Assembly: GCA_963701455.1 (NCBI GenBank)
Contig: CAVPAE010000007.1
Span: 223,761-287,760 of the forward strand
DNA from: an uncultured Gammaproteobacteria bacterium
GTDB lineage: Bacteria > Pseudomonadota > Gammaproteobacteria > UBA9214
Direction: 5' to 3'
Length of the DNA: 64,000 bases
Shown here: piece by piece, positions 40,248 to 57,516 of the stretch
How positions within the stretch are numbered: the first letter of the stretch is position 1
Layout of the letters: each line of letters starts with the position of its first letter
Translations under genes and position numbers: made by a program
Notes under the pieces: generated by a model
Told to the model about the DNA's origin: nothing
What the model saw: only the letters and a program-made list of their open reading frames with translations
Database searches by the model: none

Positions 40248-41318
40248 TTATGCTGGCTGAAGCTGCGCGATCGGCATGGAAGCGCGAATTGTTGTCCCTT
40301 CTCCATCTCCACTGGACATGGATATTTTCCCATCGACGAGTTCAATTCGTTCCCTCATACCACCGAGCCCCGCTCCCCTGAGAGAATCGTCTACAGACAG
40401 AGCGTCCTCAAGACTGAACCCGACCCCGTTATCCTGCACGGTCAATTCCAGAAAGTCGTTTATCCTGTGCAGACTGATGAGGACCTGATCTGCCTTGCTG
40501 TGCCGGGCCACATTGTTAAGTGCTTCCTGCACTACCCTGTAGACCACGACCTTCAGATTGTCCGCTATCTCGTCATCAGTTATTACAATGTCGCTGTGAA
40601 CCTGGATACCCGGATTGGCATCCTGAAAATCGCGCCGTAACCAGGTAAGTGTCGCCGAAAGGCCCAGATCATCCAGCATGGATGGCCGCAATCGCATGTA
40701 GATATTACGTACTTCCTCAATAGTCTCCTGAACAACAGGAACAAGAATCCTCGACATTTCAGCAGGGTTCAATGCTTCGTCAACCGATTCGTGCAGGGCG
40801 TGCTCAATCCTGAACTTCATCGCAACCAGTGTCTGGCTTACATTGTCATGGAGATCCTTCGCGATCCTGCGTCTTTCATTTTCCTGTGCGGCCAGCAATT
40901 GCGCCGAGAGCAGGCGCAGTTCTTTATCGGATTTACGTAACGCCTCTTCTGTTTGAGCCTGTTCTGCAATTGCATTTTCAAGTTTCTTGTTGGTATCAAG
41001 CAATTCCCGGGTACGATCCTGCACTCGATGTTCAAGATTGTCGTATGCCCGGGTCAAGGCCTCTCTTGCCTGATCGGCGTCGTTCATACTGACAAAAGCC
41101 AACCTGGCTGGAATTATCAGCGCGACCGTTGTGAAAATCAGTGTAGTGACAACATATTCCCAGCGCTCGTATAACGGCTCTGGGTGATAAAACTCGTAAA
41201 TGTGTGGTACCACCAGATCCTCAAGGTAAAACTCCCAGAAAGCACACAGCAACGTCACTCCTGCCAGGATCAGCAGAAACAGCAACATGAGGCCTCCAAG
41301 GCGACTTCTCACTGCCAC
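40248..41318 (-). CDS. membrane sensor histidine kinase, HisKA_3 (NarX/DesK-like) type
   Basis: Two N-terminal TM helices. H-box LHDNVSQTL after LAAQENERRRIAKD. HATPase_c at the C-terminus. No response regulator is adjacent. Confidence 0.8.
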   Translation of the reverse strand: MAVRSRLGGLMLLFLLILAGVTLLCAFWEFYLEDLVVPHIYEFYHPEPLYERWEYVVTTLIFTTVALIIPARLAFVSMNDADQAREALTRAYDNLEHRVQDRTRELLDTNKKLENAIAEQAQTEEALRKSDKELRLLSAQLLAAQENERRRIAKDLHDNVSQTLVAMKFRIEHALHESVDEALNPAEMSRILVPVVQETIEEVRNIYMRLRPSMLDDLGLSATLTWLRRDFQDANPGIQVHSDIVITDDEIADNLKVVVYRVVQEALNNVARHSKADQVLISLHRINDFLELTVQDNGVGFSLEDALSVDDSLRGAGLGGMRERIELVDGKISMSSGDGEGTTIRASMPIAQLQPA

Positions 41319-41590: not shown

Positions 41591-42073
41591 TCATGGCACC
41601 AGCCAGACGGGCTCACGGTGACCAGAGAGGTCGACGAGATACCCACCTCTTGAGAGAACCCGCTGACCGGGTGTGATACCGGCGCGGAGATACAGGGGCA
41701 GATAGGCGGTGAGTGTTGACGAGTGGTTGAGCAGGTCCAGGAGGTAGTCGCGGGAAATGTAGAGACCCATGTGTTTCGCGCCATCGGCAAAAGCGAGGCA
41801 GGCAAAATAGGCCAGCGCCTGATGCCGTTCTTCCCGGATCGGTATACCTCTTGCCCGGGTCCAGGCGCGGAAGCGCTGCAGCGACGGGTCGGGCTCACCG
41901 GGAAGCGCGGAGAGGTGAACCACCGGTGTCCGTGCCCGCAAGGCGTCGGGCACATCTACCCACGTCGCACCGAGCAGGGTCGGTGACAGAAATACCGGCG
42001 CCTCCCCGTTACTGAAACCCGGTTCTGCCGCCATGCGTCGGACACCAGCTGCCCTTCTCGGCAAGTGCTCCAT
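41591..42073 (-). CDS. truncated paralog (C-terminal ~150 aa) of the cytochrome-c/periplasmic-binding-protein fusion at 42986-44707; possible gene remnant
   Basis: WTRARGIPIREERHQALAYFACLAFADGAKHMGLYISRDYL...GGYLVDLSGHREPVWLV aligns with WLKVRGIPATNLAIQSRMYFLGWMLPDAIKHMRGEFYRDYF...GCYIVQLSGDENPELIKV in the larger gene. Confidence 0.5.
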   Translation of the reverse strand: MEHLPRRAAGVRRMAAEPGFSNGEAPVFLSPTLLGATWVDVPDALRARTPVVHLSALPGEPDPSLQRFRAWTRARGIPIREERHQALAYFACLAFADGAKHMGLYISRDYLLDLLNHSSTLTAYLPLYLRAGITPGQRVLSRGGYLVDLSGHREPVWLVP

Positions 42074-42233
42074 GCTTTGCCCTACCGCCTGCGTCCATGC
42101 AGGCGTCCCGGAGGGAGAAGGAACTCTTATTCGAAAGGCGCATAAGTGCTCGACAGAACATCATTTCCATGCAACCTGATCCATCGCCTAAAGGCGAGGG
42201 GTTTACGGATCCCCTATCGGTGACTCTAAATGG

Positions 42234-42917
42234 TCAAAGTAAAGAAGGATCTCTCCGGGGATCGGTCTGTCTTGTCAATGCCTGGTATTCACGCACCAGG
42301 TCACCGGCACTCGCAAAACCCTCCATGCGAACCCAGCCTGTTTGCGGTGCAGCATGCATGAATGTCAACGGTATGTGATTCATCTTGTCGCGCCGGTATG
42401 CATCAAAAGCTTTCAGCACCGCCACGATGTCTTCACGATCCCCGGTCAGAAACGTCCAGCCTGTGCTGGCCTGGAAACGCTGCGCATATTCCCGAAGTTT
42501 TGCCGGAGTATCATGCTCAGGATCGATGGTAACTGAGATCATTCGAACATTATCCGCTTCAGGACCAAGGGCCTTCCGGGTCTGGGTAAAGCTGGCACTC
42601 AGGACCGGACAGATAGTTGTGCACGTGGTAAATATAAAATTCAGCATCACCGGCTCATTACCCTCCAGCATGTCGTGCAGGGAAACCTTCCTGCCGTCCT
42701 GATCGGTCAGTACGACATCGGGCACCTGGTATTCCTGTTCCTTGCGGACATAGCCCTTTTGCTGCAGCATCTGCCTGTGCTGCGAATGATCAACTCCATG
42801 CTGGTGCATATGGTGGGCAGCATCTCCGTCATCCAGGGCATGACCGGACGATGCCATGCCGAACGTAACCAGCAGGCCCATCATCCTGCCCGCAAACCTT
42901 ATTTTGTTATTCAGCAT
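42234..42917 (-). CDS. SCO1/SenC-family thioredoxin-like copper chaperone
   Basis: Membrane anchor, His-rich stretch (HHMHQHGVDHSQH), CxxxCP motif (FTTCTTICP), DPEHDT motif. Start at MLNNKIRF (42917). Confidence 0.8.
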   Translation of the reverse strand: MLNNKIRFAGRMMGLLVTFGMASSGHALDDGDAAHHMHQHGVDHSQHRQMLQQKGYVRKEQEYQVPDVVLTDQDGRKVSLHDMLEGNEPVMLNFIFTTCTTICPVLSASFTQTRKALGPEADNVRMISVTIDPEHDTPAKLREYAQRFQASTGWTFLTGDREDIVAVLKAFDAYRRDKMNHIPLTFMHAAPQTGWVRMEGFASAGDLVREYQALTRQTDPRRDPSLL

Positions 42918-42985
42918 GTCGTATTCTCCTTTTGTAATAACGTCCCTGCTTGTTGATATTCCCCGCGGCAGAGCCACAGCCGCTT

Positions 42986-44707
42986 CTAGTTGACGACCCA
43001 GTCACTCACTTTTATCAGCTCCGGATTTTCATCACCGCTGAGTTGCACGATATAACAACCTTTTGATGCATAGCGCTGACCAGGGCCAAAACTCAGCCGG
43101 GGAAACACGGCAATTGCTGCATCCTGATCTGTCATCATGTCGAAAGATTCCAGGAAATAGTCCCGGTAGAACTCGCCACGCATATGTTTTATGGCGTCCG
43201 GCAACATCCAGCCAAGAAAATACATCCTCGACTGGATTGCCAGATTGGTAGCCGGAATACCCCGCACCTTGAGCCATTGCTGCAGCGCCATCTGCCTGTA
43301 TTTATTTTCTTCGGGAAGGCTTTCCGGATAAGTCAGATAGAGAATGTTGCGCATCCCGGCGGGAACAAGATCCAGCCTCCCTTCCAGCAGGCTCGCAGAG
43401 GCAAACAGCATGGCGTCCCTCTCCTGATTCACAACCTGGCTACGCAGAGCTTCGGTGAGATCTTCCGCAGCAAGCCACAGCAGCACCACTGGCGCAGCTT
43501 GTTCATCCTCTCCTCGCCACCATGTCGCCGGCAGGGCACCGTTATCTTCGGGCTGCCGGAACTCCGGGACACCTCCTCCATATTCAGCCCAGGCATCCTG
43601 GAACCCTCGCGCAAGCATCTCCCCCTCGCTCCCCGGCCGGTACACCTGAATGACCCGGGTATCCGGCCCGACCTTCCCGGATGCCTGCAGAAACTTGGCC
43701 GCGGTTTCTCCCTCCTGGTAGAGCCCCCTGGAGAAATACAAGGTATACCAGTCGGATTTTGAAACTACCGGCTGATCAGTCACCGGGAAGATATTGGGTA
43801 TTTCATTGTCCTCGCAGAAGTCATGAATTGGCGCCCATCTGCCGGAACCAATCCCGCCAAGCAGGGCAAACACAGGTCGCAACCGGTAATAGGATTCAAG
43901 CTGCTCGCGCCAGGTTTCAGGCGGGCCGGTCAACTCCCACACATCGAGTGCGAGCTTGCGATAGGAACCGTACTGTTCGGTCTTGTAGAAAGGGCCCTGA
44001 CTGGCCCGGCGCAGATGAGGCCGGGTCTGGGTATTGCGCGCATCGATGTGCGCCTGCAGCACCGAAAGCATGGCATCACGATCAGTAGGGGACACACCAT
44101 CGGTCACCACGGTTGCAAAGCGCAGCGTCTCCCCGTCGAGCCCCGGAGCGTTGTTGACGGAAAGGTTTTTCAGGTAATGGATGAGGATCTCCATATCCCC
44201 CTCCTCCAGATCATAACGGGGCATTGCCTGGCTCAGCACCCTACCGTCCGCAGCCACACCGGTGCGCATAGCCCTGGCCAGGGTTTCTGCCGTATAGGGC
44301 GGACGGGCATCAACAGCCCGATTCTGGGACGGCAGCGACCAGCGCTCCGCAGCGCCCGGCCCGTGACCTTCGGCGGCAGGACTCCAGGCACCGGTACGCC
44401 GTCTCGGGACAAACAATTCCTTGCCATTGATCGGCCAGGTGACGATCGAACCCTCCACCGAGCCCAGTCCGCTGCGCTGGTGGCAGTTAATACAGGTAAA
44501 CATACGTCCATCCACGAATATATCCCCTGCGATGAGGGCCTGTACCGGTTCCCCGTCGGAGAGAATTCCTTCCCGGTAGAGACGCTCTCCCAACTGTAAG
44601 GTCGCATCCTCCTGAAGGCCCGCAGCCACAGCTGGACCCGGAACAAACGCGGTCCCTCCAACTACGCCGAGGAACAATAAACACCGGGTTATGTACCGTG
44701 GCATCAT
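42986..44707 (-). CDS. fusion of mono-heme cytochrome c domain (CINCH) with a type-I periplasmic-binding-protein (LivK-like) domain
   Basis: Signal peptide. A single CxxCH with a downstream Met-rich cytochrome c fold region. The C-terminal ~350 aa has the PBP-like alternating alpha/beta pattern. Confidence 0.65.
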   Translation of the reverse strand: MMPRYITRCLLFLGVVGGTAFVPGPAVAAGLQEDATLQLGERLYREGILSDGEPVQALIAGDIFVDGRMFTCINCHQRSGLGSVEGSIVTWPINGKELFVPRRRTGAWSPAAEGHGPGAAERWSLPSQNRAVDARPPYTAETLARAMRTGVAADGRVLSQAMPRYDLEEGDMEILIHYLKNLSVNNAPGLDGETLRFATVVTDGVSPTDRDAMLSVLQAHIDARNTQTRPHLRRASQGPFYKTEQYGSYRKLALDVWELTGPPETWREQLESYYRLRPVFALLGGIGSGRWAPIHDFCEDNEIPNIFPVTDQPVVSKSDWYTLYFSRGLYQEGETAAKFLQASGKVGPDTRVIQVYRPGSEGEMLARGFQDAWAEYGGGVPEFRQPEDNGALPATWWRGEDEQAAPVVLLWLAAEDLTEALRSQVVNQERDAMLFASASLLEGRLDLVPAGMRNILYLTYPESLPEENKYRQMALQQWLKVRGIPATNLAIQSRMYFLGWMLPDAIKHMRGEFYRDYFLESFDMMTDQDAAIAVFPRLSFGPGQRYASKGCYIVQLSGDENPELIKVSDWVVN

Positions 44708-44742
44708 TAATCGCCTGAGCAGTTACCTGTATTCTAGGAGTC

Positions 44743-44908: not shown

Positions 44909-44919
44909 ATTCATTATCG

Positions 44920-46596
44920 CTAGCGACACGCCCGGTTCTTGCGGCAGCCTGAATCAAGACAATCGACAAGCCCGTCACCGTCGTTGTCGAGACTGTCAGA
45001 GCATGTGCCGCCCTTGCCTTCCACACCACCGCCAGTGCCACCCCCACCGGTGTCACCGCCTCCGTCACCTCCGGGGACCGGGCAGGACTTACCTTTCAGT
45101 CTGTCCTTACCGTCGCAGTCCTGGTCGATGCCGTCCCGCTTGATATCGCAGGCATCGGGGTTGATAGCGGCGTTGCTGTCATCACAGTCCGGTAACGTTC
45201 CGCAGTTTAACTCGGCATAGAAATTATCACTGTCGTTATCCGTACATGGGGGGGGCGGCGGATTGCTCAGCAGAGCGGATGCCGCGACCACGTCGACCAG
45301 TCCGAAACCGGAGTCGTTATCCGCACCGGCCTGGCCGATGTCCATGGCTGAATCCTGCAGGGATTGTTCGAGTTCGGCCACGCTGACACCGGGAAAGGCA
45401 CCGCGCAGCAGTGCCAGCGCGCCCGCGACATGCGGCGCGGCGGCTGAAGTGCCGCTCACGGACACATAGGAATCCGGGAACAGTCCACCGGAGGTCAGGT
45501 CCGCTGTCCTGACGTTCACACCGGGCGCGACCACTTCCGGATACAGGGTCCCGCTACAGGCCGATGGTCCGCGCCCGCTGGTCGAGGCGATGTTCAGCGC
45601 AGCGTCTACGGCGCCAACCGCGAAACCATCTGGATTATTGGCCGGGCTTTCACTGGATGACCCTGACGGCCCCTTGTTACCGGCGGAAAATGCCACGGCA
45701 ATACCGGCAGCCTTGAGTACCTGAATATCTGTCTCGAATTCCAGGTAACACTGATCCAGCAGTTGCGGGAATCCCCAGGAATTATTGACCACGTGCGGCG
45801 CATCATCACTCGCCGGGTTGCCGTCGGGATCCAGCAGCCATTGGAACCCCTGGTGAATGCCGCTCAGCGAGGCTGTCCCGCTGTCGTCAAAGATCTTCAC
45901 CGCGATCCACTGCGCGCCGGGCGCCACGCCGATTGCCGTACCCCCGGCATCTCCACCAACCGCCAGTCCCATGACCTGGGTTCCATGACCATTCCTGTCA
46001 TGGGGTGAGGCATGCTCGCCATTGGGATCGAACCAGCTGTTGTTACCGCCACGCCAGCGAGGAGCCAGGTCCGGATGGTTCACATCAACCCCGGTGTCCA
46101 TACCCGCCACAACCATACCGGTTCCGGTGTAGCCCAGCCCCCAGAACTCCGGTGCACGTATTGCATCGAGATTCCACTCCGATGTCGTGGCGGTCGCCGC
46201 TGCCGGCGCCGGAGCCTGGACACTGGCATCAAGCGTAATACTGTCCACCCCCGGAAGTCCGAGTAACGGCTGAATGACATCCGCCCTGGCCGTCACAGCA
46301 AGGGCATTGATCGACCATAACTGAATGAGCCGTTTTGCCCCGTTCCCCTGCAGGAAGGCGATGGCTGGTCCCTGGCTGGCATTCGCCGTATTCCGCAAGG
46401 CCTGGATCAGCGCTGCCAGTTCGACACCCCTGCCCTGCCCCTTCCCTGGGAATGCCTCCAGATCCACACGTTCGGAAAATCTGACAATGAATGCCACATC
46501 TTTCCCGTCCTGGATGGCTTGTTGCACTTCCGCTGTCATGGTGGCGGCCTGCACTCCTGGCCCCCATGCGGAAACGCAGACCATGCCAAACAGCAG
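44920..46596 (-). CDS. subtilisin-like serine protease (S8) with C-terminal Cys/Asp-rich DxDxDG module
   Basis: Catalytic triad contexts: VAGMDTGVD (Asp), HGTQVMG (His), GTSAAAPHVAGA (Ser). The C-terminus has ...DIKRDGIDQDCDGKD..., a Gly-rich run and further Cys. The start is uncertain: the ORF 5' end (MRRNDGSGLVQ) is encoded by repeat C, so GTG about 46596 or ATG 46575 are more likely. Confidence 0.8.
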   Translation of the reverse strand: MLFGMVCVSAWGPGVQAATMTAEVQQAIQDGKDVAFIVRFSERVDLEAFPGKGQGRGVELAALIQALRNTANASQGPAIAFLQGNGAKRLIQLWSINALAVTARADVIQPLLGLPGVDSITLDASVQAPAPAAATATTSEWNLDAIRAPEFWGLGYTGTGMVVAGMDTGVDVNHPDLAPRWRGGNNSWFDPNGEHASPHDRNGHGTQVMGLAVGGDAGGTAIGVAPGAQWIAVKIFDDSGTASLSGIHQGFQWLLDPDGNPASDDAPHVVNNSWGFPQLLDQCYLEFETDIQVLKAAGIAVAFSAGNKGPSGSSSESPANNPDGFAVGAVDAALNIASTSGRGPSACSGTLYPEVVAPGVNVRTADLTSGGLFPDSYVSVSGTSAAAPHVAGALALLRGAFPGVSVAELEQSLQDSAMDIGQAGADNDSGFGLVDVVAASALLSNPPPPPCTDNDSDNFYAELNCGTLPDCDDSNAAINPDACDIKRDGIDQDCDGKDRLKGKSCPVPGGDGGGDTGGGGTGGGVEGKGGTCSDSLDNDGDGLVDCLDSGCRKNRACR

Positions 46597-46617
46597 CAGA
46601 ATCACCTTGAGGAGAAA

Positions 46618-46784
46618 CTGAACAAGTCCTGATCCGTCATTCCGGCGCATGCCGGACAAAAGTGCATGGCGCGTTGAACGCCCGGAGGGCGGCCCGCAGG
46701 GCGAGCGAAGCGAGTCATCCAGGGAAATCAACAAGCTGGACCCCGGCCTTCGCCGGGGTGACGACTTATTCAGGGTTTCCTTGA
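46618..46784 (+). repeat. ~167-bp interspersed repeat family C, full copy
   Basis: Direct repeat of 44743-44908. The two copies flank the protease gene. Confidence 0.85.
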
Positions 46785-46804
46785 GCTTCAGGCTTTTCAT
46801 GGCA

Positions 46805-47308
46805 TCACTCCACAACGATGTGCTCTTGCCTGAAGTCACCGATCACCAGGGTGACCTGATCTCCAGCCTTGACGGCACGGCCGGGATTGGCAAAGAACAT
46901 AAAATAGTTCCGGTCCACCTTGGCAAACTTCGGTGCCTGGCGCAGCGGCCCGATCTTGGCCGAGACCGGCACCTGCAGCTTGTGGCCGTTTTTTTCCACG
47001 ATCAGCTGCGGTTTAATCTTGCGGTCCATGATGGCAGCGGCCTTTTCCGGGTCCAGCATCCGGAACCGGAAATCCAGCATGTAATCAGCCGCGGTCCGGC
47101 GGATCCCGATGACACGTATCCCCCAGGGATCTCCGGGGTCTGCCTGTTCCTGCTCAGCAACGTTCGGCACTGCGACACTTGTTGCAAAGACCAGCTGTCC
47201 TGGCATAAACATGAACGCAAGCCCCAGCACCACCAGCAGGGCTACCGCGATTTGTACGGTATGGACGCATACCCCCAAGGTGATCCGCCTGGTCTGAGTC
47301 TGTTGCAT
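46805..47308 (-). CDS. membrane-anchored periplasmic hypothetical protein (167 aa)
   Basis: A single TM helix (IAVALLVVLGLAFMF) then a soluble domain. Lies between the MCO-like triad and the protease. Confidence 0.45.
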   Translation of the reverse strand: MQQTQTRRITLGVCVHTVQIAVALLVVLGLAFMFMPGQLVFATSVAVPNVAEQEQADPGDPWGIRVIGIRRTAADYMLDFRFRMLDPEKAAAIMDRKIKPQLIVEKNGHKLQVPVSAKIGPLRQAPKFAKVDRNYFMFFANPGRAVKAGDQVTLVIGDFRQEHIVVE

Positions 47309-47420
47309 GGTTTTATTCCCCTTCAGTCGTGATCAAACAATAGTCCGATCTCTCTACCAGTTCGTCAGTCATTGCAAGCAGTGGCGGGTACCTCCCCCAC
47401 TGGAGAGGTACCCGGAGCAC

Positions 47421-49244
47421 TTATTTCAGGATATCCACCCGGACGGTAGCCTCATTCGAGGTCGCGTCGAGATCATCCATGACGGTGTAGCCGAGCGCAT
47501 CCGAGCCGCGCTTGCCGGCGGTCGGCGTGTAGGTGATTGTGCCGTTACCGTTGTTCACCGCAGCGCCCTTGCGCGGGTTGCTGGTGATGATCACGGTATT
47601 GGCGACAACCGTACCGTCGTCGGTGTCATTGGCGACCACATTGATGGTCACGGAGTTGGTGCTGGCACCGGTATTACGCATCACCGTGGCGTAGTCGTCG
47701 TTGGCTACCGGAGACTGATTACCTGGCGCCGCATTGACCGTGACTGTGACCGTCGCGGAGTCGACACCACCATTGCTATCAGAGATGTCATAGGTGAAGG
47801 TTTCGTCACCGGAGAATCCCGCCAGCGGGCTGTAGGTCACGGTATTGCCATCCGTCGTGGCCGTTCCACCATTATCCGTTGCACCTACCGCAGTTATCGT
47901 CAGCGCATCGCCATCCACGTCGGTATCGTTGGCCAGCACGTCGAGACTGTTGTTGATCGAATCCTGGGCTACGCCAAAGGGATCGTCGACTGCAACCGGA
48001 TCATCGTTGAGCGGCGTTACCGTTACGCTCACGGTCGCGGCATTGGAAATATTCCCTGCCGTATCACGAACCGTGTAGGTGAAACCGTCCGCCCCGCTGA
48101 AATCGGGACTCGGGGTATAGGACACGGTACCGTCGTTAATCGCAACAGCCTGACCGTTGACCGCCGGACTGGCGATCGCCACTGTTGCCAGATCAATCGG
48201 ATTCCCGACAGGCGTATCGTTTGCCAGGACGCTGATGCTGCTGCCTGTCGAATCCTCCGCCACGGACGACACATCATCGACCGCCGTTGGCCCGGGTACC
48301 GCCGCGGCCACCGACAGATTGGTGAGCATCCCGCTACGCAGACGCCGGTCATACACGGGGTAGGTACCATTGGCGGCCGGCGTGAAGATCGCATCCTTTG
48401 TCTTGCCAGCGGCCATCAACACCGTGTGCTGCACGCGCGGGAAGGGATAGACATTGCCGTCCTCTGCAACCAGGGTCATGTGCTGGCCCTGCAATACCAT
48501 GGCATGGTCTTCCAGGCCTGCATTGAGCAAGCGGACCAGTGTATTGCTGCCTGCTGTACCGGCAGGCAAAGGCGCATCACCGGGCACAAAGGGGGCGCCA
48601 TTGACCAGGAAATATTTCGGTGCATAGTTGATCGTGCTGGGATAGCTTGCTGTCCCGTAGGTGCCACCGGCCACGGCTGCGTGCAGGGCCGGATCGATCT
48701 CGCTGTACAACAGCGACACCTCGCTATCATAGGAAATACCCGCATAGGCCTCTCCGGTCTGCGCATCGTGCGTCACCGCGCCGTACAGGCCCATCTGCAC
48801 CTGCACCGCCGGGTGTGTACCACTCGAATACAGGAAGGTCCCCGGTTTGAGGTTGCTCCATGCATAGATCCCGGTGGCTGCAGGGAGCGTCTCGTGGGTA
48901 AACGAACGCACCCGCTGCCGGCCCTGGTCATCGGTAAAAAACACCGGTGTCATTGCCGCCTGCTGGCCGGAGATCACGATCGACACCGGACTGGCGAGTT
49001 CATTACGCAGGTTGACCGTGAGCGTAGTGTCACCTACCGGCACCGTCAGCTGCGGGCCCGGTACGGTTGGCGTGCATGGCACACCCGTGTCCAGCCCGTA
49101 GCCCCACATGGTTATCACTGTGCTATCCGGCATGGTCAGGGTCGTCGTGCCGGCGCAGAGATCGTAAGTCACCGCACCGGCCTGGCCGGCAGCCGTCAGC
49201 AGGGCGGTGAGTGCCACACCTTGTTTGATTGATCTTATGTTCAT
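47421..49244 (-). CDS. secreted cupredoxin/multicopper-oxidase-like protein with degenerate Cu sites + C-terminal tandem Ig-like (cadherin/VCBS-like) domains
   Basis: Signal peptide. N-terminal ~330 aa are paralogous to the 49266 and 50569 genes (MWGYG..PGP.L.V; LEDHAMVLQGQHMTLVAEDGN aligns with HPFHFHGNHVTLIGRDGR). There is no HCH motif. Three Ig-like repeats (VAEDSTGSSISVLANDT..., ...LDVLANDTDVDGDALTI...). The 641-aa antisense ORF is R/G/H-rich junk. Confidence 0.7.
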   Translation of the reverse strand: MNIRSIKQGVALTALLTAAGQAGAVTYDLCAGTTTLTMPDSTVITMWGYGLDTGVPCTPTVPGPQLTVPVGDTTLTVNLRNELASPVSIVISGQQAAMTPVFFTDDQGRQRVRSFTHETLPAATGIYAWSNLKPGTFLYSSGTHPAVQVQMGLYGAVTHDAQTGEAYAGISYDSEVSLLYSEIDPALHAAVAGGTYGTASYPSTINYAPKYFLVNGAPFVPGDAPLPAGTAGSNTLVRLLNAGLEDHAMVLQGQHMTLVAEDGNVYPFPRVQHTVLMAAGKTKDAIFTPAANGTYPVYDRRLRSGMLTNLSVAAAVPGPTAVDDVSSVAEDSTGSSISVLANDTPVGNPIDLATVAIASPAVNGQAVAINDGTVSYTPSPDFSGADGFTYTVRDTAGNISNAATVSVTVTPLNDDPVAVDDPFGVAQDSINNSLDVLANDTDVDGDALTITAVGATDNGGTATTDGNTVTYSPLAGFSGDETFTYDISDSNGGVDSATVTVTVNAAPGNQSPVANDDYATVMRNTGASTNSVTINVVANDTDDGTVVANTVIITSNPRKGAAVNNGNGTITYTPTAGKRGSDALGYTVMDDLDATSNEATVRVDILK

Positions 49245-49265
49245 GTCTATTCCCCCGCCCTGCGT

Positions 49266-50540
49266 TTATGGAATCGGAACACCGTTGGGCTCGACGATCA
49301 TCATGGTCATCATGCCGCCCGGAAAGATGTCGTTGTTGGCAAGTTCTTTCTCTGCATGGGAATGCCACATGAAGAACATGCCCCCGTCCAGGTTCAGACC
49401 GCCCTCGCCCGGCGGCAGGTCACCAAACTGACCCAGGAACGGGCTGCCGCGGTAGAAGCCACCAAAGGTCATGTCCTGGATCGCCGGCAGTACCACCGGT
49501 AACTTCTTGCCGTGATCCGGCGCGTATTCGTTGGGTTCCAGCGGGTCGCCGTTTTTGTGGCCGTAGATGTCCCAGCCGAGCTTGTAACCGGTCCAGCTCC
49601 ACAGGGCATCATAGGTCGAGCCCGGCACCGCCTGCAGGGTGAAGTCGACACGCGCCAGGTCAGGTCCCGCTCCGGGCGTGCTCTCCAGCATGCGACCGTC
49701 GCGACCGATGAGGGTGACGTGATTACCGTGGAAGTGGAAGGGATGCAAGTCCCGTCCGGCGCTGATCACCCGCGCCAGTACTGTCTCACCGACATGCGTC
49801 CGCGGCAGGATGTTGTAGGGCTGGTTCGGCAGCCACGGGGCATATGCATCCGCCATGGTATCCGGACCATTGCGGCCGTTGATGAACCACAGCACCGCCT
49901 TGTGTTCGCTGTTGTCGATGACATCGTACAGTTCCAGCGAGGCGTAGTAATGGACCATCGGGTCCATTTCGGTGAGCAGGAACAGGTATTCCTGGTCGAA
50001 CGCCGTGTCCGGATGATTGTAGGCCTGGTTAGCAGCAGCAGGCCGGACGATGATGGCGCCCAGCAGGCCCATCTCGACCTGCAACTCCGGGCGCGTGCCG
50101 CTGTTGTACAGGTAGGTTCCGGGATTACTGGCGGTAAAGGTGTAGGTCACCTTGTCCGCTAGCGCGGGCCCGGTACTCTCCTGGGTCAACAGTCCCGCTG
50201 AGCCGCCGGTTGCACTCACCCCCTCCTGACCGGGAAATACCAGCGACACCGGCATGTTCGGCACGCCGAGCGCATTGGTCAGGTTGATGGTAATGGTATC
50301 GCCCTGGTCGACGATCAGCGTCGGCCCGGGATACTGCATTTCGCCGTCATCCAGCGCGTAACCCCAGACCAGCAGGCTGTCACCGTCCGGCGTGGAGATA
50401 ATGGCCGGTTTTGCAGTGAAGTCGAAGTTCGTTCCGGTGACGCCGTCGATGGCCGCCTCGGTCCTGGCACCCGCCAGGGACATCAGCAGCAGGGCAAATC
50501 CCGCCAGCCAGTGTCCGGTTTGCAGTGTTTTCGTATTCAT
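49266..50540 (-). CDS. multicopper-oxidase-like protein lacking the type-1 Cu cysteine (HSH instead of HCH)
   Basis: Signal peptide. HPFHFHGNH fits the HxxHxH motif. FMWHSHAE occupies the position of the HCH motif with Ser replacing Cys. Confidence 0.7.
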   Translation of the reverse strand: MNTKTLQTGHWLAGFALLLMSLAGARTEAAIDGVTGTNFDFTAKPAIISTPDGDSLLVWGYALDDGEMQYPGPTLIVDQGDTITINLTNALGVPNMPVSLVFPGQEGVSATGGSAGLLTQESTGPALADKVTYTFTASNPGTYLYNSGTRPELQVEMGLLGAIIVRPAAANQAYNHPDTAFDQEYLFLLTEMDPMVHYYASLELYDVIDNSEHKAVLWFINGRNGPDTMADAYAPWLPNQPYNILPRTHVGETVLARVISAGRDLHPFHFHGNHVTLIGRDGRMLESTPGAGPDLARVDFTLQAVPGSTYDALWSWTGYKLGWDIYGHKNGDPLEPNEYAPDHGKKLPVVLPAIQDMTFGGFYRGSPFLGQFGDLPPGEGGLNLDGGMFFMWHSHAEKELANNDIFPGGMMTMMIVEPNGVPIP

Positions 50541-50568
50541 GGACTTATCCCCCGGTTCCGGTCTGTTG

Positions 50569-51828
50569 TCATAACCCGATGTGGATTTCGGTCATCATGC
50601 CGCCGAAATCCTCGTCGTTGTTGCTGAGATAATTCAGGTTGGTGGTGTAGAGGAAGTAGGTCCCCGGCGCCACGCCCGCTGTATCGATAATTGCGTCAAC
50701 CGACTCGCCCCCGCCCAGCGTCACCGAAGCGGTGTCGTAGTACAGTTCCTCGCCGCTGGCCACGCCGCCGCCTTTCAGGATGCGCGCGCCGGTGCCCACC
50801 ACCTTCATGGTCAGCCCCAGGGTAGTCAGGGTGTAGTAGCGGGTGACGTTCAGGTTGGAGATGCGCAGCAGGATCTTTTGCCCGGCAGTGGCCTCAATCC
50901 GTGAACTGACCGGCTGGGAGGTGCTGAGCGGGCTAACAGCAGTTGGGAAATCCCCAGCTCTGACAGGATTGGCGCCACTCTCCAGTGTGTGCGGAAAGTC
51001 GAAGGTACTGGCATCGGCGGTATCAGGGTAGCCGCGGCCGTTCAGCATGGCATAGCGGTCGGTCATGTTGGCAAACGGCAGCGGCTGGGTATTCATGCTG
51101 GCATCGTGAAAGTCCGGATCGAAGGAACCGATCTGGATGGGAAACTCGACGTCATAGCCGGTTGAACCGTCGGTGTCGTTGTACACAAACTTGTTATAGC
51201 CACCAATGGTGGTCCCGTTCTGTGCCGGCCTGACATAGAGGTTGCCCAGCATGCCCATCTGCATGTGCTCGGTAGCCTCGACATGACAGTGATACATGTA
51301 GGTGCCGGGCTCCGCGAGATTGTAGTAATAGGTCACGCTGGCCCCCATGTTGATGGAGATGGTGGCATCCGGCACCCCGTCGAAGATATCCGAGGCGTTC
51401 GGGAAACCGTGGAAATGCACGGTATGCGGATCGGCCAGATCCGGACGCATCAACATGCCGTAGTTGGTCAGCGTCAGGTAGAATTCCTTGCCCTCGTCCA
51501 GCACGATGGTCGGCGCTGGAAAGTTTGCTGCCAGAATGCTCGCATCGAGTGCCTGGTCATGGGGCACACCCGTCAGGTCGACGAAGCTGAACATGTACTG
51601 CAGCCTGCGGATGTCATCGGACATGCTGACAAAACCGTCCCCGGCGCCCAGGTGCATGCACCTCACATTCGCGGTTGACTGTCCCTTGTGCATCGCCTTG
51701 TCAACTACGGCATCGCCATCGGTATCACCGGGACACTGCACCAGGGCCGCGGCACCTGCCAGGCCCGGCAATCCCGTCAACAGCAACAGGAGTGCAGCGG
51801 CAAGTGGATTTACGTGGTTGTCTTTCAT
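50569..51828 (-). CDS. multicopper oxidase with intact type-1 copper motif
   Basis: RBS GGAGGA lies 7 nt before ATG 51828. Signal peptide MKDNHVNPLAAALLLLLTGLPGLAGAAA. HTVHFHG, then YMYHCHVEATEHMQMGM (HCHxxxxHxxxxM). C-terminal cupredoxin domain ends FGGMMTEIHIG. Confidence 0.75.
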   Translation of the reverse strand: MKDNHVNPLAAALLLLLTGLPGLAGAAALVQCPGDTDGDAVVDKAMHKGQSTANVRCMHLGAGDGFVSMSDDIRRLQYMFSFVDLTGVPHDQALDASILAANFPAPTIVLDEGKEFYLTLTNYGMLMRPDLADPHTVHFHGFPNASDIFDGVPDATISINMGASVTYYYNLAEPGTYMYHCHVEATEHMQMGMLGNLYVRPAQNGTTIGGYNKFVYNDTDGSTGYDVEFPIQIGSFDPDFHDASMNTQPLPFANMTDRYAMLNGRGYPDTADASTFDFPHTLESGANPVRAGDFPTAVSPLSTSQPVSSRIEATAGQKILLRISNLNVTRYYTLTTLGLTMKVVGTGARILKGGGVASGEELYYDTASVTLGGGESVDAIIDTAGVAPGTYFLYTTNLNYLSNNDEDFGGMMTEIHIGL

Positions 51829-51889
51829 TGGTCTATCCTCCTGTGTGCCCCGGGGTGGAGGCATCCCACCCCGGAACGCTAGCCCTTGG

Positions 51890-54800
51890 TTACGGCGTGA
51901 ACTCATCAGCCCCGATGTCGTCACGGTTCCGCCAGACCGTCGTCGGCCGGGTATCGCCGTCAATATCAACAGCCGGTGCATTATCATTGTTGTTACCTGC
52001 GCCCCTGTCGATTGCGGCCAGCCTTGAGACTGACGTATCGACAAGGTGGTAATCACCCGTCGGTGCCAGCGGGCCAAAGCGGACCTGGATGAAGTTGCCA
52101 CCCTCGTCGAAGGCCGGTTGCGTGGCGATGGTGGTGGTGAGTTCCACCTGCTGGATGGTCTCGCCGTTGTCGGTATTGACGTATGGCAGAACAAACAGGT
52201 CCAGTGGATCGGTGATACCGCTGCCGTCACGGTTGTTGTTGTGGTAACCAGTAGTATCAGTCAGCAGGTTGAAACGCGGGTCCAGCGAACCGGTCGCACC
52301 GAGCACTGCCAGGTCCTGGTAGGGCGTGGCGGCACTGTTCAGACCGTACACCGCAGGTTCCACCGTCGTATCGATCTCGAAGAAGAACGACCGGTTGCGC
52401 CAGACAATGTTGTTCAGCAGCAACGGCTTGGAGAACACACCGTATTGATTTTGCCGGTTATTGGGTATTTCGCCGTTCAGTGCCGAGCTGTGCGCACGCG
52501 AGACGATACCCGCCGGTTGCGCCGTAGACTGGTTCGGACTGCCGGGTGCAAATGCCTCACCCGCCGTGGCCGTGGAGTCATTGTGGGCAACGGTGTTGTT
52601 GACGATGTTCACTCTCACCGTATCCTGCAGGGCGATACCGCCGGCAGCCATGCCCGCCATGTTGTTGACGACGATGTTGTTGACAATATCCAGCGGATAC
52701 CAGCCGTTTGGATTGTTTGATGCTTGCACATCTGTGCCGTTGACAGCCGCGGCCGCGATACCGCCACCGTCACCGGCACCGGCCTGGTTACCCTGGATGA
52801 CGTTGGACAGGATCTGTACCGGACCGGACCCCGGGCTCAGTGCGCCGGGATTCAGGGCCGCAGCGCCGCCGATGAAGATGCCACCGCCGTTGCGTGCCTG
52901 CCCCTGGTTAAAGGACTGGTTGAACATGATGGTGTTGTTGGCGATGAGACCCGAGAGCACCGTATTTCCGGATCCAAAGCCGCCACTGCGGCCATAGTGG
53001 CCGATGCCGCCGCCGTCACCCTGGGTGAAGTTACCGCAGATGGTGTTGTCCGTTACCTGGTAACTGTCACTGCCGTGATACAGGCTGACACCGCCACCGG
53101 CACCATTGCCGCTGCCGTTCCCGGCAATCAGATTATGGTGGATACGGATGTTGTCATTGAAGCCGTCCTGGTAGACCAGATTGGCGCCCTGTTCAAGGGC
53201 CAGGAACGGATGACCGACGCGGATACCGCCGCCGTAGATGCCATGATTGCCGAAGATACGGTTATTAGACATTTCCAGGTTTTCGGCATAGCCGTTGACC
53301 ACGATACCGCCGGCACTGTCCGACCCGGTAATGCTGAGGCCGTCGATACGTGACACATTTTTACCGAAAGTGTCGTCCTGCGTACTCCCTGTACCATCCA
53401 GGCCCAGCACGATGATGCCGGGGCCTTCCTCGGTGAACAGGACGTCCGGTTCACCGGCCACGCCGAACCCGACCTCCTGGGCCGGCAGCAGGTGATACTT
53501 GCCCTGGGTGTGCAATGTCTCGACATCCTGGCGCCAGGCGGTGATTTTCTCGCCCGGCGACTTGATGGCGCTGATGGTGGTGGAAGCGCCCGAGCCCTGC
53601 AGGCGCACCGGCTTGTGCATGATGACCAGTTCCTCGTACTCGCCCGGCGGCACCAGTATCAGGTCACCGGGACTGGCCACATCGATGGCAGCCTGGATGG
53701 AGCCGCCCGGGGCCACCTGTATTGCACCGCCACCCACCGTCACGGTGATACCCGCGACAGTCGACCGACCGTTGTCACCCCGGGTGATCTGCAACTGACC
53801 GGTGGTGGTACCGGCGGTCACCGTGCCGCTGATGGAACCGTTCGACCAGCTGACGTTCGTCAGTGGAACGCCGCTGATAGTGACGCTACCCGTCCCCTGG
53901 GAAGCGCCGAAGCCATAGTCGCGGCCGCCGGGGTCCTGGGCTGCCGTGATCGTGATTGACTGCGTGCCGTCGGCAACATACGGATTGTTGCCGTTGGGTG
54001 CCGGTGCGTCGACGTATGGTCCGCTCAGTGAGCCGACTACCGACCAGATTACCGGCGTACCATCCTGGTCCCGGCAGTCCAGCGGCTGCTGGTTCGGGCC
54101 CGTAAAGGCTGCGACGGGTACCACCGGTGTATCCAGGAAGGTGGTCACGCCCGGCATGTACTGGAAGGTGTAGCAGAACTGGCTGTACTGCGAGTTATAG
54201 TTCGGATCCGTGACGAAACCACCGGCACCATCGGGAATGGGGCCCGGATCATTCATGCAGGTGGTGACCATGTTCGGCGAAGTGCCACTGGCACTTGCAT
54301 TGCTGTTGGTAAACATGGAGGGCAATACCGCATTGAACGTGCCCCAGCGGTCGGAGTAGGTGCGCGCATACTCCCGCCCCTTCCAGTCGCGAATCGACAC
54401 CGGCAGGTAGGGCGGCGAGTACTTCTCGCCGAAGGTCGGTGAATTGGGGTCAAACTCGTTCGACAGATCGTCGAGAATGAACCCTGTTACCTTCGCCGCC
54501 ACCGGCACCTGGGTGAACATGAAGAAGTCGGCCGCCGCGTTCTTGCCATCGGTCAACAGGACCTGCTTGCGGTCGCACAACGGGGTATCGGTGCCGGCCA
54601 GGAATGGTGATTCTCCTGGAATCGGGAATAGCGAGAAATCATCGGGCACCAGGTGCAGGTCACCGACACAGACCGGTGGCAACAGTTCAGGCGCCGGCAC
54701 GAACTCATCACCGAAGTCCACGTTGCGGTCTTCTTCCTTGAGTGTCTGGTAGACCGGGTGCTCACCGGTAGCGACGATGTAGATGCCCTTGGGCAAGGAA

Positions 54801-57022
54801 TCCACCTCGGCAGCGCCCGAATCGACGCCACCCGGCACGTAGGAATCGAAGGCATAACCACCGTCGAACACCGCCGGGCGTACCTGGTTGTAGTTACGTA
54901 TGCCGTCGTAGCAATCCGTCGGTACCGAACCATTGACCATGAAAACGTCACCCTGGCAGCCGGTCGGGATGTTGTCGTCCCAGCTGTCAGTGGTGCTTAT
55001 CTGGATGGCATCACCGCCGTCGAAGCTGCCGTTTTCCGAATCGGCCAGCGGCGCACAACCGTTGAGCGGATCCAGCGCAGGGTAGTCGAAGTCCTCGGCG
55101 CCCGGGAAGTTGCCAAATGGATAGTTATCCACATCCGCCAGTGTCTGGCAGCCATCGCCGTTGAGGTCGTCAATCACGCCATCGCCACCGGGGGGAATAT
55201 TATCCTCGTACAGGACCACCTGGATGCGCGGTATACCCGGCTCCCACAACTCGGCGCCGGCATAGGCCGGATCGTCCTCGGCGCGGGTCACGGCATAAAA
55301 GACGATTCCCGAAATGCCGCCGTTCTCACCGATCACGTAGGGTTTCTTGCCCCACTGGATGACATTGGTCTGGCCGAGGAAGGCCTGTACGCCCTGGGTC
55401 AGCACCGGCCCGGTCTCGGTACGGTAGGAAGCGCCACCGTTCTCTGACTGGGGCTGGGGATTGAGCACGCCATCAAATGACCAGGGATCATTGGGGTCGA
55501 CCGGCCCGCCGTCATCCACGATGATGGTTGCACCGGTTGCCTTGTAGCGGGTAAAGCCGACTTCCGCGACCAGCCAACTGAAGAAGGGGAATACCTCGTC
55601 ATAGGGCGCGGCCCCGCCAAGGTCCGTGGGGAATCCCTGGTAGATGGTGCCATCACGCCAGCGCAGCGCGGTGCCCTCTTCGAACATCGGCGCCTCTCCG
55701 GCGTCCCAGAAGCCGTTTTCGTTCTGGTCGTTGAATACGTGTTGTTCGACACGGCCAAACCAGGCAAACACCGGCACATCCAGCAGGCTGCAGCTGCCAC
55801 CATTACACTGGCCGTTCAGAACGGTGACACCCTGGGAACCGAAGATGTAATCCAGATTCTTGTCCCAGATCGCCAGCTGGTAATTGCCATCGGGCACGCC
55901 GGAAATAGAGAACTTGCTGTCCTCGTCACAGGGGACCGCGATGACACCCTGGCCGATATTGACTGCCAGGTCGTTGAGACCAACCCAGCAGCCGGGTACG
56001 GGTGCCCCGGTATGAAAAGCAAAATCCGGCGGGCGCGAGTTATGGATACTGCGCACCTGGCCGGTGATAGTGACACCACCGCCGAGTGTGGCACCATTCT
56101 GGAGTCCTTCCCTGACGAAACCCATAAACACGTGCGGGCCTGGCGGGCCGAACTCGGTGAAGAACGGCGGTTCATTAGCCTTCACCCAGGCATCGATAAT
56201 CTTCTTGCCCTCGAGGGTGGTGGTCTGTGACCAGCTGGTCGGATCGCCATTTGCATCGGTGGTTGGTGGAACTGCCTGGATGCCATACTTGGCCGGGACG
56301 AGGTTCTTGATCAGGGCGATACCGTTCGCATCGGTCGTGACGGTGCCATCCCCCAGGCTGACAACATTGCCGGCATTGCCATAGGTGGTGCCGAGCGGGT
56401 TGCCGAAGGCATCCGTGGTGATCTGCTGGCCGGAGATACCGTAGCGACCACCGGCATCCTCGAGCAGGATATTGAATCCGCCCAGCCCGACTTCTTCCGG
56501 GGTATCCGGTGCACCGTTGATAGGCCAGTTATCCTCGAAGATGAAGATACGGATCTGCGCCGTGGGAACAGGATGCTCATTGACGCTGATCGGGACAATG
56601 ACCTGACCCGCCGCGATCTGCGCACCGCCCATGCTGAAGCCTGAATCGGGCAGTATGGACACATAGTAGCGCTTGTTGTCATCCAGGGCTGGCAGGGAGG
56701 AAGGATCACTGGAATGACCTTCCGCGACGACCGGCAGGTAGCTCTTGTGGAAGTTCACCGACAGGCAGTCAGCCTCAAAATCAGGCTGGCAGGTCTCCCC
56801 CGGCACGATGTCGTAGGTGACATCCTCTTCAATCAGCCAGCGATAAGCCGGAACAGGTACCGAGCCGCCATTGGCGTCAACGCCGGTTACATTCAGGACA
56901 GGCACTGCAGCCGCCACAGGCCAGGCAATCAGCACGCAGGTGAGCAACGCCACAAGACCTGAGTAGCGGCTGACAAGCAATTCCCCCCAACTCTTTTCCC
57001 AATGAATAGTGATTGCGTTCAT
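51890..57022 (-). CDS. giant (about 1700 aa) secreted/surface protein: N-terminal signal-anchor, SdrD-B/carboxypeptidase-regulatory-like region, C-terminal right-handed parallel beta-helix repeats
   Basis: TM/signal segment LVALLTCVLIAWPVAAA. The C-terminal ~500 aa have repeated beta-helix rungs (NNRIFGNHGIYGGGIRVGH; NLIAGNGSGNGAGGGVSLYHG; NTICGNFTQGDGGGIGHYG; NNTIMFNQSF; NVIQGNQAGAGDGGGIAA; NNIVVNNMAGMAAGGIALQD). The antisense ORFs are low-complexity. Confidence 0.7.
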   Translation of the reverse strand: MNAITIHWEKSWGELLVSRYSGLVALLTCVLIAWPVAAAVPVLNVTGVDANGGSVPVPAYRWLIEEDVTYDIVPGETCQPDFEADCLSVNFHKSYLPVVAEGHSSDPSSLPALDDNKRYYVSILPDSGFSMGGAQIAAGQVIVPISVNEHPVPTAQIRIFIFEDNWPINGAPDTPEEVGLGGFNILLEDAGGRYGISGQQITTDAFGNPLGTTYGNAGNVVSLGDGTVTTDANGIALIKNLVPAKYGIQAVPPTTDANGDPTSWSQTTTLEGKKIIDAWVKANEPPFFTEFGPPGPHVFMGFVREGLQNGATLGGGVTITGQVRSIHNSRPPDFAFHTGAPVPGCWVGLNDLAVNIGQGVIAVPCDEDSKFSISGVPDGNYQLAIWDKNLDYIFGSQGVTVLNGQCNGGSCSLLDVPVFAWFGRVEQHVFNDQNENGFWDAGEAPMFEEGTALRWRDGTIYQGFPTDLGGAAPYDEVFPFFSWLVAEVGFTRYKATGATIIVDDGGPVDPNDPWSFDGVLNPQPQSENGGASYRTETGPVLTQGVQAFLGQTNVIQWGKKPYVIGENGGISGIVFYAVTRAEDDPAYAGAELWEPGIPRIQVVLYEDNIPPGGDGVIDDLNGDGCQTLADVDNYPFGNFPGAEDFDYPALDPLNGCAPLADSENGSFDGGDAIQISTTDSWDDNIPTGCQGDVFMVNGSVPTDCYDGIRNYNQVRPAVFDGGYAFDSYVPGGVDSGAAEVDSLPKGIYIVATGEHPVYQTLKEEDRNVDFGDEFVPAPELLPPVCVGDLHLVPDDFSLFPIPGESPFLAGTDTPLCDRKQVLLTDGKNAAADFFMFTQVPVAAKVTGFILDDLSNEFDPNSPTFGEKYSPPYLPVSIRDWKGREYARTYSDRWGTFNAVLPSMFTNSNASASGTSPNMVTTCMNDPGPIPDGAGGFVTDPNYNSQYSQFCYTFQYMPGVTTFLDTPVVPVAAFTGPNQQPLDCRDQDGTPVIWSVVGSLSGPYVDAPAPNGNNPYVADGTQSITITAAQDPGGRDYGFGASQGTGSVTISGVPLTNVSWSNGSISGTVTAGTTTGQLQITRGDNGRSTVAGITVTVGGGAIQVAPGGSIQAAIDVASPGDLILVPPGEYEELVIMHKPVRLQGSGASTTISAIKSPGEKITAWRQDVETLHTQGKYHLLPAQEVGFGVAGEPDVLFTEEGPGIIVLGLDGTGSTQDDTFGKNVSRIDGLSITGSDSAGGIVVNGYAENLEMSNNRIFGNHGIYGGGIRVGHPFLALEQGANLVYQDGFNDNIRIHHNLIAGNGSGNGAGGGVSLYHGSDSYQVTDNTICGNFTQGDGGGIGHYGRSGGFGSGNTVLSGLIANNTIMFNQSFNQGQARNGGGIFIGGAAALNPGALSPGSGPVQILSNVIQGNQAGAGDGGGIAAAAVNGTDVQASNNPNGWYPLDIVNNIVVNNMAGMAAGGIALQDTVRVNIVNNTVAHNDSTATAGEAFAPGSPNQSTAQPAGIVSRAHSSALNGEIPNNRQNQYGVFSKPLLLNNIVWRNRSFFFEIDTTVEPAVYGLNSAATPYQDLAVLGATGSLDPRFNLLTDTTGYHNNNRDGSGITDPLDLFVLPYVNTDNGETIQQVELTTTIATQPAFDEGGNFIQVRFGPLAPTGDYHLVDTSVSRLAAIDRGAGNNNDNAPAVDIDGDTRPTTVWRNRDDIGADEFTP

Positions 57023-57516
57023 CAGCGTTCCCCCAATCTGTTTTTCGGTTTTTCTGGCTGGCCACCACACGGCGACGCTACAGATCCATATTCCCTACAC
57101 ATCAGTCAGTTACTGCACAGATTCCGCAACATTCGATCACTACAGGTACTGTGACAAAACCAACTACTCCGGCAGCACTACAACACTTGTGGGGTAACTG
57201 TAGGCGGATTGAGTCTCAAAGAGAGGTAGTTCAACACCGTATTTCACGGCACCAATGCACGATAAATCAGGTAGGGTATTCCGGTAGCTTCAGGCTACTG
57301 CACCGGGTTTCTGCGCCTGGAATTCAGCCCGGATAAATGGCACGGACCAACCCGGCAAGGGACAGAACAAGGGACGAGTAAACGCCATGCGCCTGGCCAC
57401 CGATAATCAGGGGGATATATTTGCAGGAATGGAACGACAAGCGTCGTTAATGAAAGCGCACTGCTACTAGAGGTAAAAGAAACAGCCCTGCCAGGCCGAA
57501 ACGGAACGATCCCGAA

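Follow-up and report, generated by a model that had tools for sequence, protein, structure and literature searches.

A cytochrome c–periplasmic-binding-protein fusion paired with a Sco protein, and the putative remnant of its divergent paralogue, in an uncultured gammaproteobacterium

Introduction

The closest described relatives of the system reported here are the MofC-like proteins, whose cytochrome-plus-binding-domain architecture and neighbourhood of multicopper oxidase (MCO) and SCO1 genes have been described before (PMC5566968). The mofC gene of Leptothrix discophora mofABC has a distant homologue, GSU1397, located beside SCO1 (GSU1398) in the ompB cluster of Geobacter sulfurreducens (He et al. 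2017, PMC5566968), and genes of this kind sit with OmpB/MofA MCOs, MofB and SCO1, with three tandem MCOs in Sideroxydans lithotrophicus ES-1 (PMC5566968). In the latter strain, Slit_1812-1818 code for a cytochrome and SCO1/SenC, together with two small proteins, one large cupredoxin protein in which adhesin and polysaccharide-lyase-like domains are present, and a pair of MCOs; an extracellular location is predicted for the cupredoxins, the proteins of the cluster are higher on magnetite than on Fe(II)-citrate, and Paraburkholderia and Ralstonia are said to hold similar clusters (bioRxiv 10.1101/2024.09.20.614158). These two sources were the only ones returned by a full-text literature search for GSU1397 and Slit_1812. 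Here we describe a locus of similar make-up in a stretch of 64,000 nucleotides (nt) from an uncultured gammaproteobacterium of the lineage UBA9214 (assembly GCA_963701455.1, contig CAVPAE010000007.1, positions 223,761 to 287,760; hereafter the window), in which a cytochrome c–binding-protein fusion (gene A), an SCO1/SenC gene (gene B) and a short open reading frame (ORF C) follow one another on the minus strand.

By its architecture and by its cluster synteny with MofC, GSU1397 and Slit_1812, gene A fits a MofC-like protein. As in MofC and GSU1397, a single-haem cytochrome c and a periplasmic-binding domain are combined beside SCO1/SenC and extracellular MCO genes, and the Geobacterales homologue in Pelotalea chapellei (L078) lies between two FKBP (MofB-like) genes with SCO1 upstream, in the order MCO, FKBP, SCO1, A, FKBP, a small protein and an MCO of 1280 amino acids (aa). 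The window differs from these clusters in its partners, which are three two-domain cupredoxin proteins and a giant protein instead of a MofA/OmpB-type MCO, and in having no MofB/FKBP gene. With Slit_1812-1818 it shares the gene content, whereas its intact cluster is rearranged (the giant protein first, followed by MCO1-3, a 167-aa protein, an added S8 subtilase, and A before SCO1). The clusters of Paraburkholderia and Ralstonia hold gene A homologues with 34-36% identity over 93% of the length, and these, along with the homologue in the Cupriavidus cluster, lend indirect support to the family assignment.

Gene A and its family

The product of gene A is a secreted, single-haem cytochrome c joined to a type I periplasmic-binding fold (Table 1). 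A typical Sec signal peptide (about residues 1-29, MMPRYITRCLLFLGVVGGTAFVPGPAVAA) precedes the haem domain, in which Met162 may act as the sixth haem ligand, as this fits a PDB profile search in which the gene A stretch '...LAR..R.G....G....MPRY' aligned to the Met-Pro region of the fructose dehydrogenase cytochrome subunit (a weak match, beyond which the PDB sequence search with gene A returned nothing). The CxxCH motif, the distal methionine and the predicted export together mark the product as a putative class I c-type cytochrome, and precomputed PF00034 assignments are present on many of its homologues.

The sole Pfam match of gene A is Peripla_BP_6 (residues 261-557), at 28.8 bits and thus under the gathering score of 31.7. 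An AlphaFold2 (AF2) model built on a 32-sequence alignment (mean predicted local distance difference test score, pLDDT, of 74.7) reached a pLDDT of about 90 over the C-terminal two-lobe domain, and Foldseek matched the model to LivK/LivJ-type binding proteins of the PDB (probability 1.0, E 1e-13 to 1e-9, identity 10-15%); the LivK-like matches scored alike, and no single binding-protein subfamily or ligand stood out among them. Gene A thus has the two-lobe type I fold of LivK/LivJ (Peripla_BP_6), from which it differs by its low identity, the cytochrome fusion and the lack of a LivHMGF-type permease/ATPase partner. With a sub-threshold Pfam score and no cognate permease or ATPase, it falls outside the definition of an ATP-binding cassette (ABC) importer substrate-binding protein of the Peripla_BP_6/LivK kind. 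No NCBIfam model matched gene A, ORF C or the 167-aa protein, and an exact-sequence database look-up found no record for the window's own protein.

A first-pass annotation of this DNA, made from the letters alone, had proposed a cytochrome c with one CINCH motif fused to a LivK-like fold, and on this point the reading frame, the motif, the AF2 model and Foldseek agree; the three reading frames also lie where it had placed them, on the minus strand. Of the binding-protein subfamilies that it had in mind, Peripla_BP_6 held up as the only match, at the sub-threshold score given above, and the LivK/LivJ-type fold was recovered by structure prediction. It was equally right that no permease or ATPase is adjacent: none adjoins gene A, SCO1 or ORF C in the window. 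The rarity of the fusion that it had implied did not survive the database searches, which retrieved at least 840 homologues with gene A (nearly all of 550-600 aa) and at least 3,299 with its Cupriavidus homologue, in what is a known, MofC-like family.

The search with the Cupriavidus homologue takes in the Burkholderia cepacia complex, Paraburkholderia, Ralstonia, Collimonas, Sulfuricella and Sulfurimicrobium, and the NCBI names given to the family are 'c-type cytochrome', 'type 1 periplasmic-binding domain-containing protein' and 'ABC transporter substrate-binding protein'. A scan of one genome per species yielded 180 gene A loci, spread over Gammaproteobacteria (Sedimenticola, Thiosymbion, Chromatiaceae), Geobacterales (Pelotalea chapellei, Citrifermentans bremense, Geomonas), Desulfobulbaceae, Holophagae, Nitrospirota, Rokubacteria and Binatia. 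The mean column identity of the 32-sequence alignment was 64%; the CxxCH motif and the Met-Pro pair were invariant in it and in 25 diverse homologues, a conservation that extends over A, the paralogue A2 described below, and homologues of Burkholderiales and Geobacterales. In these 25 very diverse members the invariant N-terminal residues are C72, C75, H76, R135, Y138 and M162-P163, while those of the binding domain are N225, W257, W266, Q269, W291, H295, F297, Y324, S326, E332, W411, S437, Q544, R545 and W570. The fusion is a widespread family, already noted in the literature and functionally uncharacterised.

Conserved pairing with SCO1

Gene B encodes a SCO1/SenC protein, with a thioredoxin-like Sco domain (SCO1-SenC, PF02630, 88 bits) that carries the CxxxC motif (C119TTIC123) and a distal histidine (His201), preceded by a His-rich N-terminal stretch and a membrane anchor or signal; its true start is likely Met21, at 42917. 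Proteins of this family function as Cu(I) chaperones and/or thiol oxidoreductases (PMC7558416).

In the 80 species genomes fetched for neighbour counts, Sco lay directly beside the A homologue and on the same strand in 69 (58 upstream and 11 downstream of it), 0.8-3.8 kb away in three, and was absent nearby in five, the contig end being too close to judge in the remaining three. This adjacency spans at least eight phyla, in either gene order and with a median gap of about 105 nt. The accompanying MCO genes vary in type between lineages or lie more than 10 kb from the A homologue; the genetic coupling of gene A is thus far tighter to Sco than to any particular MCO. The link to copper handling that had been suspected from the first reading of the window is borne out by this conserved synteny of gene A with Sco and cupredoxin/MCO genes across phyla.

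The gene set of the window (the giant protein, three cupredoxin/MCO genes, a protein of ~150-170 aa and the S8 subtilase) accompanies A homologues in a tubeworm symbiont, Thiosymbion, Desulfobulbaceae, Holophagae and others, and its content is also found with A homologues in Burkholderiales, including Cupriavidus metallidurans CH34 and Paraburkholderia. On the chromids of the latter two, genes for an MCO2-like protein, an MCO3 fused to the giant protein (a fusion with an MCO3-like protein that we observed in Burkholderiales), a protein similar to the 167-aa one (p167-like) and two proteins of ~270 aa come before A; SCO1 follows A directly in CH34, where the pair lies at about 1.331-1.334 Mb of the chromid, and about 4 kb downstream in Paraburkholderia, where type II secretion genes come next in the cluster.

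In relatives, a transporter module combines a MacB/FtsX permease and an ABC ATPase with two further proteins, one of 100 aa and anchored in the membrane, the other of 335 aa, polytopic and Cys-containing. Of the 38 loci whose flanks reach at least 8 kb on either side, 16 have this module no more than 10 kb from the SCO1-A pair, and in the loci inspected it comes directly after the pair. Over the wider set (loci L002-L006, L021-L031, L037-L050 and others) it stands after or before the pair. The 335-aa protein carries CCGS and HHCP motifs, and neither it nor the 100-aa protein matched a Pfam or NCBIfam family. The module is not present in the window.

ORF C and the A2 paralogue

ORF C appears to be a truncated 3' remnant of a divergent paralogue of gene A, here named A2, to which its homology is confined in the 3' part. 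With the C-terminal ends of intact A2 genes (530 aa) it shares 67-80% identity, and a metagenome scan recovered loci in which the region homologous to ORF C forms the C-terminus of an uninterrupted A2 of ~530 aa. Its 19 database homologues (56-79% identity) are short since they come mostly from tiny contigs or split gene calls. A2 has its own CQSCH motif and an 'MPRF' stretch, is without the ~35-residue insertion of gene A, and is only about 34% identical to it, which also sets the gene A of the window apart from the Slit_1812-1818 type of cluster.

The intact A2 genes stand at the syntenic position, before the same kinase, in other genomes (full-length paralogues of this kind had been suggested as worth searching for). 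In L096 the order is MCO3, giant protein, p167-like protein, a 269-aa protein, SCO1', A2, HisKA_3 kinase, ankyrin protein and FeS/FAD oxidoreductase, the last two on the opposite strand, and L094 shows the same order from SCO1' onward (SCO1' being the SCO1 of A2-type loci). The right flank of both is collinear with the window from ORF C through the kinase and the ankyrin protein to the FeS/FAD oxidoreductase, with amino acid identities to the window of 70% (kinase), 75% (ankyrin) and 89% (FeS/FAD) for L096 and 76% (FeS/FAD) for L094. The order of Slit_1812-1818 is shared by this SCO1'-A2 version (L096, L010 and the Burkholderiales loci L106/L107), the putative source of ORF C. For the intact cluster, the closest relative is L008 (about 85%; A 84% and SCO1 87% identical), where A, SCO1 and the kinase follow each other with no ORF C and with a 437-nt SCO1-kinase spacer that holds no trace of A2. 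The HisKA_3 kinase is hence the conserved right-hand neighbour of both cluster versions.

At the nucleotide level, the homology of the window to A2 (76-79% to L010 and L011, 71% to L009) runs from about 42045, ~30 nt inside ORF C, to the stop codon. The junction consists of the spacer after SCO1 and the first ~28 nt of ORF C (42046-42073), so that the first ~10 codons of ORF C are non-homologous; over its 188 nt (42046-42233) no homology was found to A2, L008 or any fetched locus in searches of 41319-42240 and 42046-42233. Identity to the window SCO1 reaches only 43-50% for the SCO1' of A2-type loci, whereas ORF C and the A2 of these loci share 68-80%, which argues that the window SCO1 belongs with gene A and not with the remnant. 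The simplest history would be that two divergent cluster versions occupy one chromosomal site in related lineages: an A-SCO1-type cluster may have replaced, or been deleted into, an SCO1'-A2-type cluster beside the HisKA_3 kinase, leaving the last ~150 codons of A2.

The similarity of ORF C to the C-terminus of the fusion, on which the first-pass annotation had remarked, is real (E 2e-17 in BLASTP against residues 431-562 of gene A), though the identity is 31% over 132 aa and not about 40%. Of its two suggestions, a partial duplication or a degraded paralogue, the truncated paralogue stands and the duplication falls: a local tandem duplication of the gene A 3' end was rejected on the 31% identity to A as compared with 67-80% to A2 elsewhere. 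The idea that ORF C is a piece of a longer, frameshifted gene was also discarded, as the distance to the SCO1 stop codon is only 160 nt and tblastn of full-length A2 against this spacer in all frames gave only the known 3' segment, with no A2 homology upstream.

As an observation on A2 itself, a frameshift divides the gene into two reading frames that overlap in L009 (about 580-650, with a 4-nt overlap) and in L010 (about 9773-10013), at differing positions; many genes of L010 are fragmented, and assembly errors may be present there.

That ORF C works as a small protein in its own right, derived from the C-terminus of A2, we consider very improbable, even if part of the evidence leans that way and counts against its being a remnant: the frame is intact over 160 codons, nearly all A2-conserved residues are kept, and its ratio of nonsynonymous to synonymous substitution rates (dN/dS) versus intact A2 is 0.18-0.27, where pairs of intact genes give 0.16-0.36. 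Signs of relaxed selection (raised dN/dS, stop codons, frameshifts) were not found in ORF C, which is compatible with a recent truncation; with equal dN/dS, recent truncation and retained function look alike by sequence alone. A functional protein would, however, have to do without a signal peptide although its parent is periplasmic, and would begin with the ~10 codons of junction sequence. Neither this signal peptide nor a promoter had been evident to the first-pass annotation, and the scan for promoters and terminators over 41200-45000 agreed with it, finding no sigma-70-like promoter site, and nothing at all between SCO1 and ORF C. ORF C is moreover missing from the closest relative L008, and all other A2 loci that can be judged upstream hold the full-length gene (frameshift-interrupted in L009 and L010). 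The lobes of type I binding proteins are built from interleaved segments, and the C-terminal third of such a protein is unlikely to fold alone.

Possible function of the pair

The reading that we favour, with a confidence that is evenly balanced, is that A and B would form a conserved periplasmic redox/copper-delivery module serving the neighbouring secreted cupredoxin/multicopper proteins. Copper would be bound by Sco through its CxxxC and His site, and the haem domain of A would pass single electrons, keeping Sco-bound or transferred copper as Cu(I), with the binding-protein domain as a docking or ligand-holding platform. A and Sco together may thereby metallate the apo-cupredoxin proteins in the periplasm before export, and ORF C would play no part in the module. 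Sco proteins with a dedicated periplasmic redox partner have parallels in Sco-cytochrome c fusions, such as one of Pseudomonas putida that is reportedly a precedent for electron transfer between Sco and cytochrome c, and in the TlpA-ScoI-PCuAC pathway of CuA assembly, from which the present pair differs in that the cytochrome is separate and carries a large binding-protein domain, and in that the presumed clients are secreted cupredoxin/MCO proteins and not cytochrome oxidase. The Iodidimonas iox cluster (MCO and SCO1-like genes) offers a loose precedent only, as no cytochrome/binding-protein fusion has been reported there.

Several points speak against a copper-delivery role. A His/Met-ligated haem is a poor reductant for the Sco disulfide, so that only Cu(II)/Cu(I) chemistry is plausible. 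No Cys pair, Met cluster or multi-His site is conserved in the binding domain across the 25 diverse members, and the sequence therefore gives no argument that this domain itself binds copper. The AF2 model is of low confidence in the haem domain (pLDDT <50 at residues 69-133), and the link to MofC is one of architecture and cluster synteny.

A rather unlikely alternative is that gene A encodes a periplasmic electron carrier between the inner-membrane chain and the cupredoxin/MCO complex in Fe/Mn oxidation or reduction, with Sco as a generic assembly factor. This corresponds to the original MofC hypothesis (Brouwers et al. 2000, in the form in which it is cited in PMC5566968), and would agree with the large multihaem cytochromes 7-13 kb away and with the rise of the ES-1 cluster proteins on solid Fe(II) (bioRxiv 10.1101/2024.09.20.614158). 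Yet the MCO partners are predicted to be extracellular, while A, having only a Sec signal, would remain periplasmic; besides, its constant neighbour is Sco and not one MCO type, and a simple shuttle needs no 380-aa binding-protein domain. The type I fold itself and the invariant polar residues of the binding domain (N225, Q269, H295, S326, E332, S437, Q544, R545) would suit a redox-responsive ligand sensor or a transporter substrate-binding subunit: a small molecule, possibly a metal chelate, would be captured and the haem would report or alter the redox state of the ligand, which in many relatives would pass to the adjacent MacB/FtsX-type ABC system (within 10 kb in the 16 of 38 well-flanked relatives mentioned above). 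We regard this as improbable, given that no transporter adjoins gene A in the window and that A has no transmitter domain, despite the two-component genes nearby; nor is any MacB-type system known to use LivK-type binding proteins.

Returning to copper delivery by A and Sco, the proposal can be extended, tentatively and with some doubt, to a general, unrecognised haem-dependent copper-insertion machine: the Sco and MofC-like pair would serve secreted cupredoxin/multicopper complexes from Geobacter to the Burkholderia cepacia complex, often extended by a Cys-containing membrane protein and an ABC system of the MacB type, as a functional analogue of the NosDFYL maturation apparatus.

Genomic neighbourhood

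Table 1. Features of the gene A region and its flanks. Positions are those of the window unless given as residues of gene A; L numbers denote loci of relatives.
Feature	Position	Strand	Basis
HisKA_3 histidine kinase, directly downstream of ORF C	40248..41318	-	Pfam; synteny with L008, L011, L092-L096
ORF C, putative 3' remnant (last ~150 codons) of divergent paralogue A2, 160 aa	41591..42073	-	BLASTP and nucleotide homology boundaries
Spacer, SCO1 stop to ORF C start, 160 nt	42074..42233	-	
Gene B, SCO1/SenC copper chaperone / thiol-disulfide oxidoreductase	42234..42977	-	Pfam SCO1-SenC and motifs
Gene A, MofC-like periplasmic protein, 573 aa	42986..44707	-	Reading frame, motif, Pfam, AF2/Foldseek
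Class I cytochrome c domain of gene A	about residues 35-185		
Single haem motif C72-I-N-C75-H76 of gene A	44480-44494	-	
Axial Met162 of gene A, within 'MPRY'	44222-44224	-	
Type I periplasmic-binding fold of gene A	about residues 190-573		
Upstream part of the conserved cluster: giant 1726-aa beta-helix/adhesin-like protein, MCO1, MCO2, MCO3-cadherin, 167-aa protein, S8 subtilase with MopE-type motif	44920..57070	-	Pfam and NCBIfam

The cupredoxin genes upstream of gene A (47421-52230) have their copper-ligand motifs divided among paralogues. MCO1 (likely start near Met135) carries HFH plus HCH..H..M inside one domain, MCO2 carries HFH plus HSH and no cysteine at all, and MCO3 has no copper-ligand motifs and three cadherin/Big_9 repeats; this split suggests a hetero-oligomeric two-domain MCO, with a possible single active centre at the subunit interface. 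The 1726-aa protein (51890-57070) gave faint domain matches only (fn3_3 and SdrD_B); in addition, its residues 1125-1169 weakly match the first part of TIGR04247, the NosD family of copper-maturation beta-helix proteins (E 1e-6).

On the other side, at 30071-35748 (downstream of the interval flagged by the first reading), are two multihaem c-type cytochromes of very large size, 1258 aa and 628 aa, with c7/c3 repeats and an MtrC/MtrF-like domain. Between them and the kinase lie a probable membrane protein (35445-36503), the FeS/FAD oxidoreductase and a 696-aa ankyrin/Sel1 protein; taken together, the region resembles an island for extracellular electron transfer. The opposite side of the cluster (region 60617-63609) holds a second HisKA_3 kinase (61340-62197), which shares 43% identity with the one by ORF C, and along with it a PAS protein and a response regulator of the NarL/LuxR type (60617-61273); the two kinases, the response regulator and the PAS protein are probably the regulators of the cluster.

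A direct repeat of ~175 nt (89-97% identical) occurs just upstream of gene A (44736-44909) and at 46610-46784, where it falls inside a mechanical 5' extension of the S8 subtilase reading frame; a third, partial copy has its core at 3425-3469. The repeat includes a strong GC hairpin (GTCACCCCGGCGAAAGCCGGGGTCCAGC), and the 213-nt S8-A spacer that holds it (44708-44920) folds well below shuffled controls (z = -3.4). L008, whose S8-A spacer is 49 nt long, does not have the repeat there, and Rfam gave no match to it, as is the case for the entire window. The repeat looks like a small intergenic element, similar to repetitive extragenic palindromes (REP) or miniature inverted-repeat transposable elements (MITE), or like a shared regulatory region.

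Conclusions

For the window, the result is mostly clarifying: the fusion belongs to a common family that had been noted before, and the 'truncated paralogue' would be a recombination scar, a remnant that appears to document the swap of two divergent cluster versions at one chromosomal site. The wider interest lies in the pair itself. Secreted multicopper/cupredoxin proteins, on whose copper supply the pair may bear, have been implicated in oxidizing Fe and Mn, in reducing Fe(III) oxides and in taking up electrons from minerals. The putative A-Sco module travels with such proteins across at least eight phyla, including the tractable Cupriavidus metallidurans CH34, Burkholderia and Geobacter, and thus offers a target for knockout.

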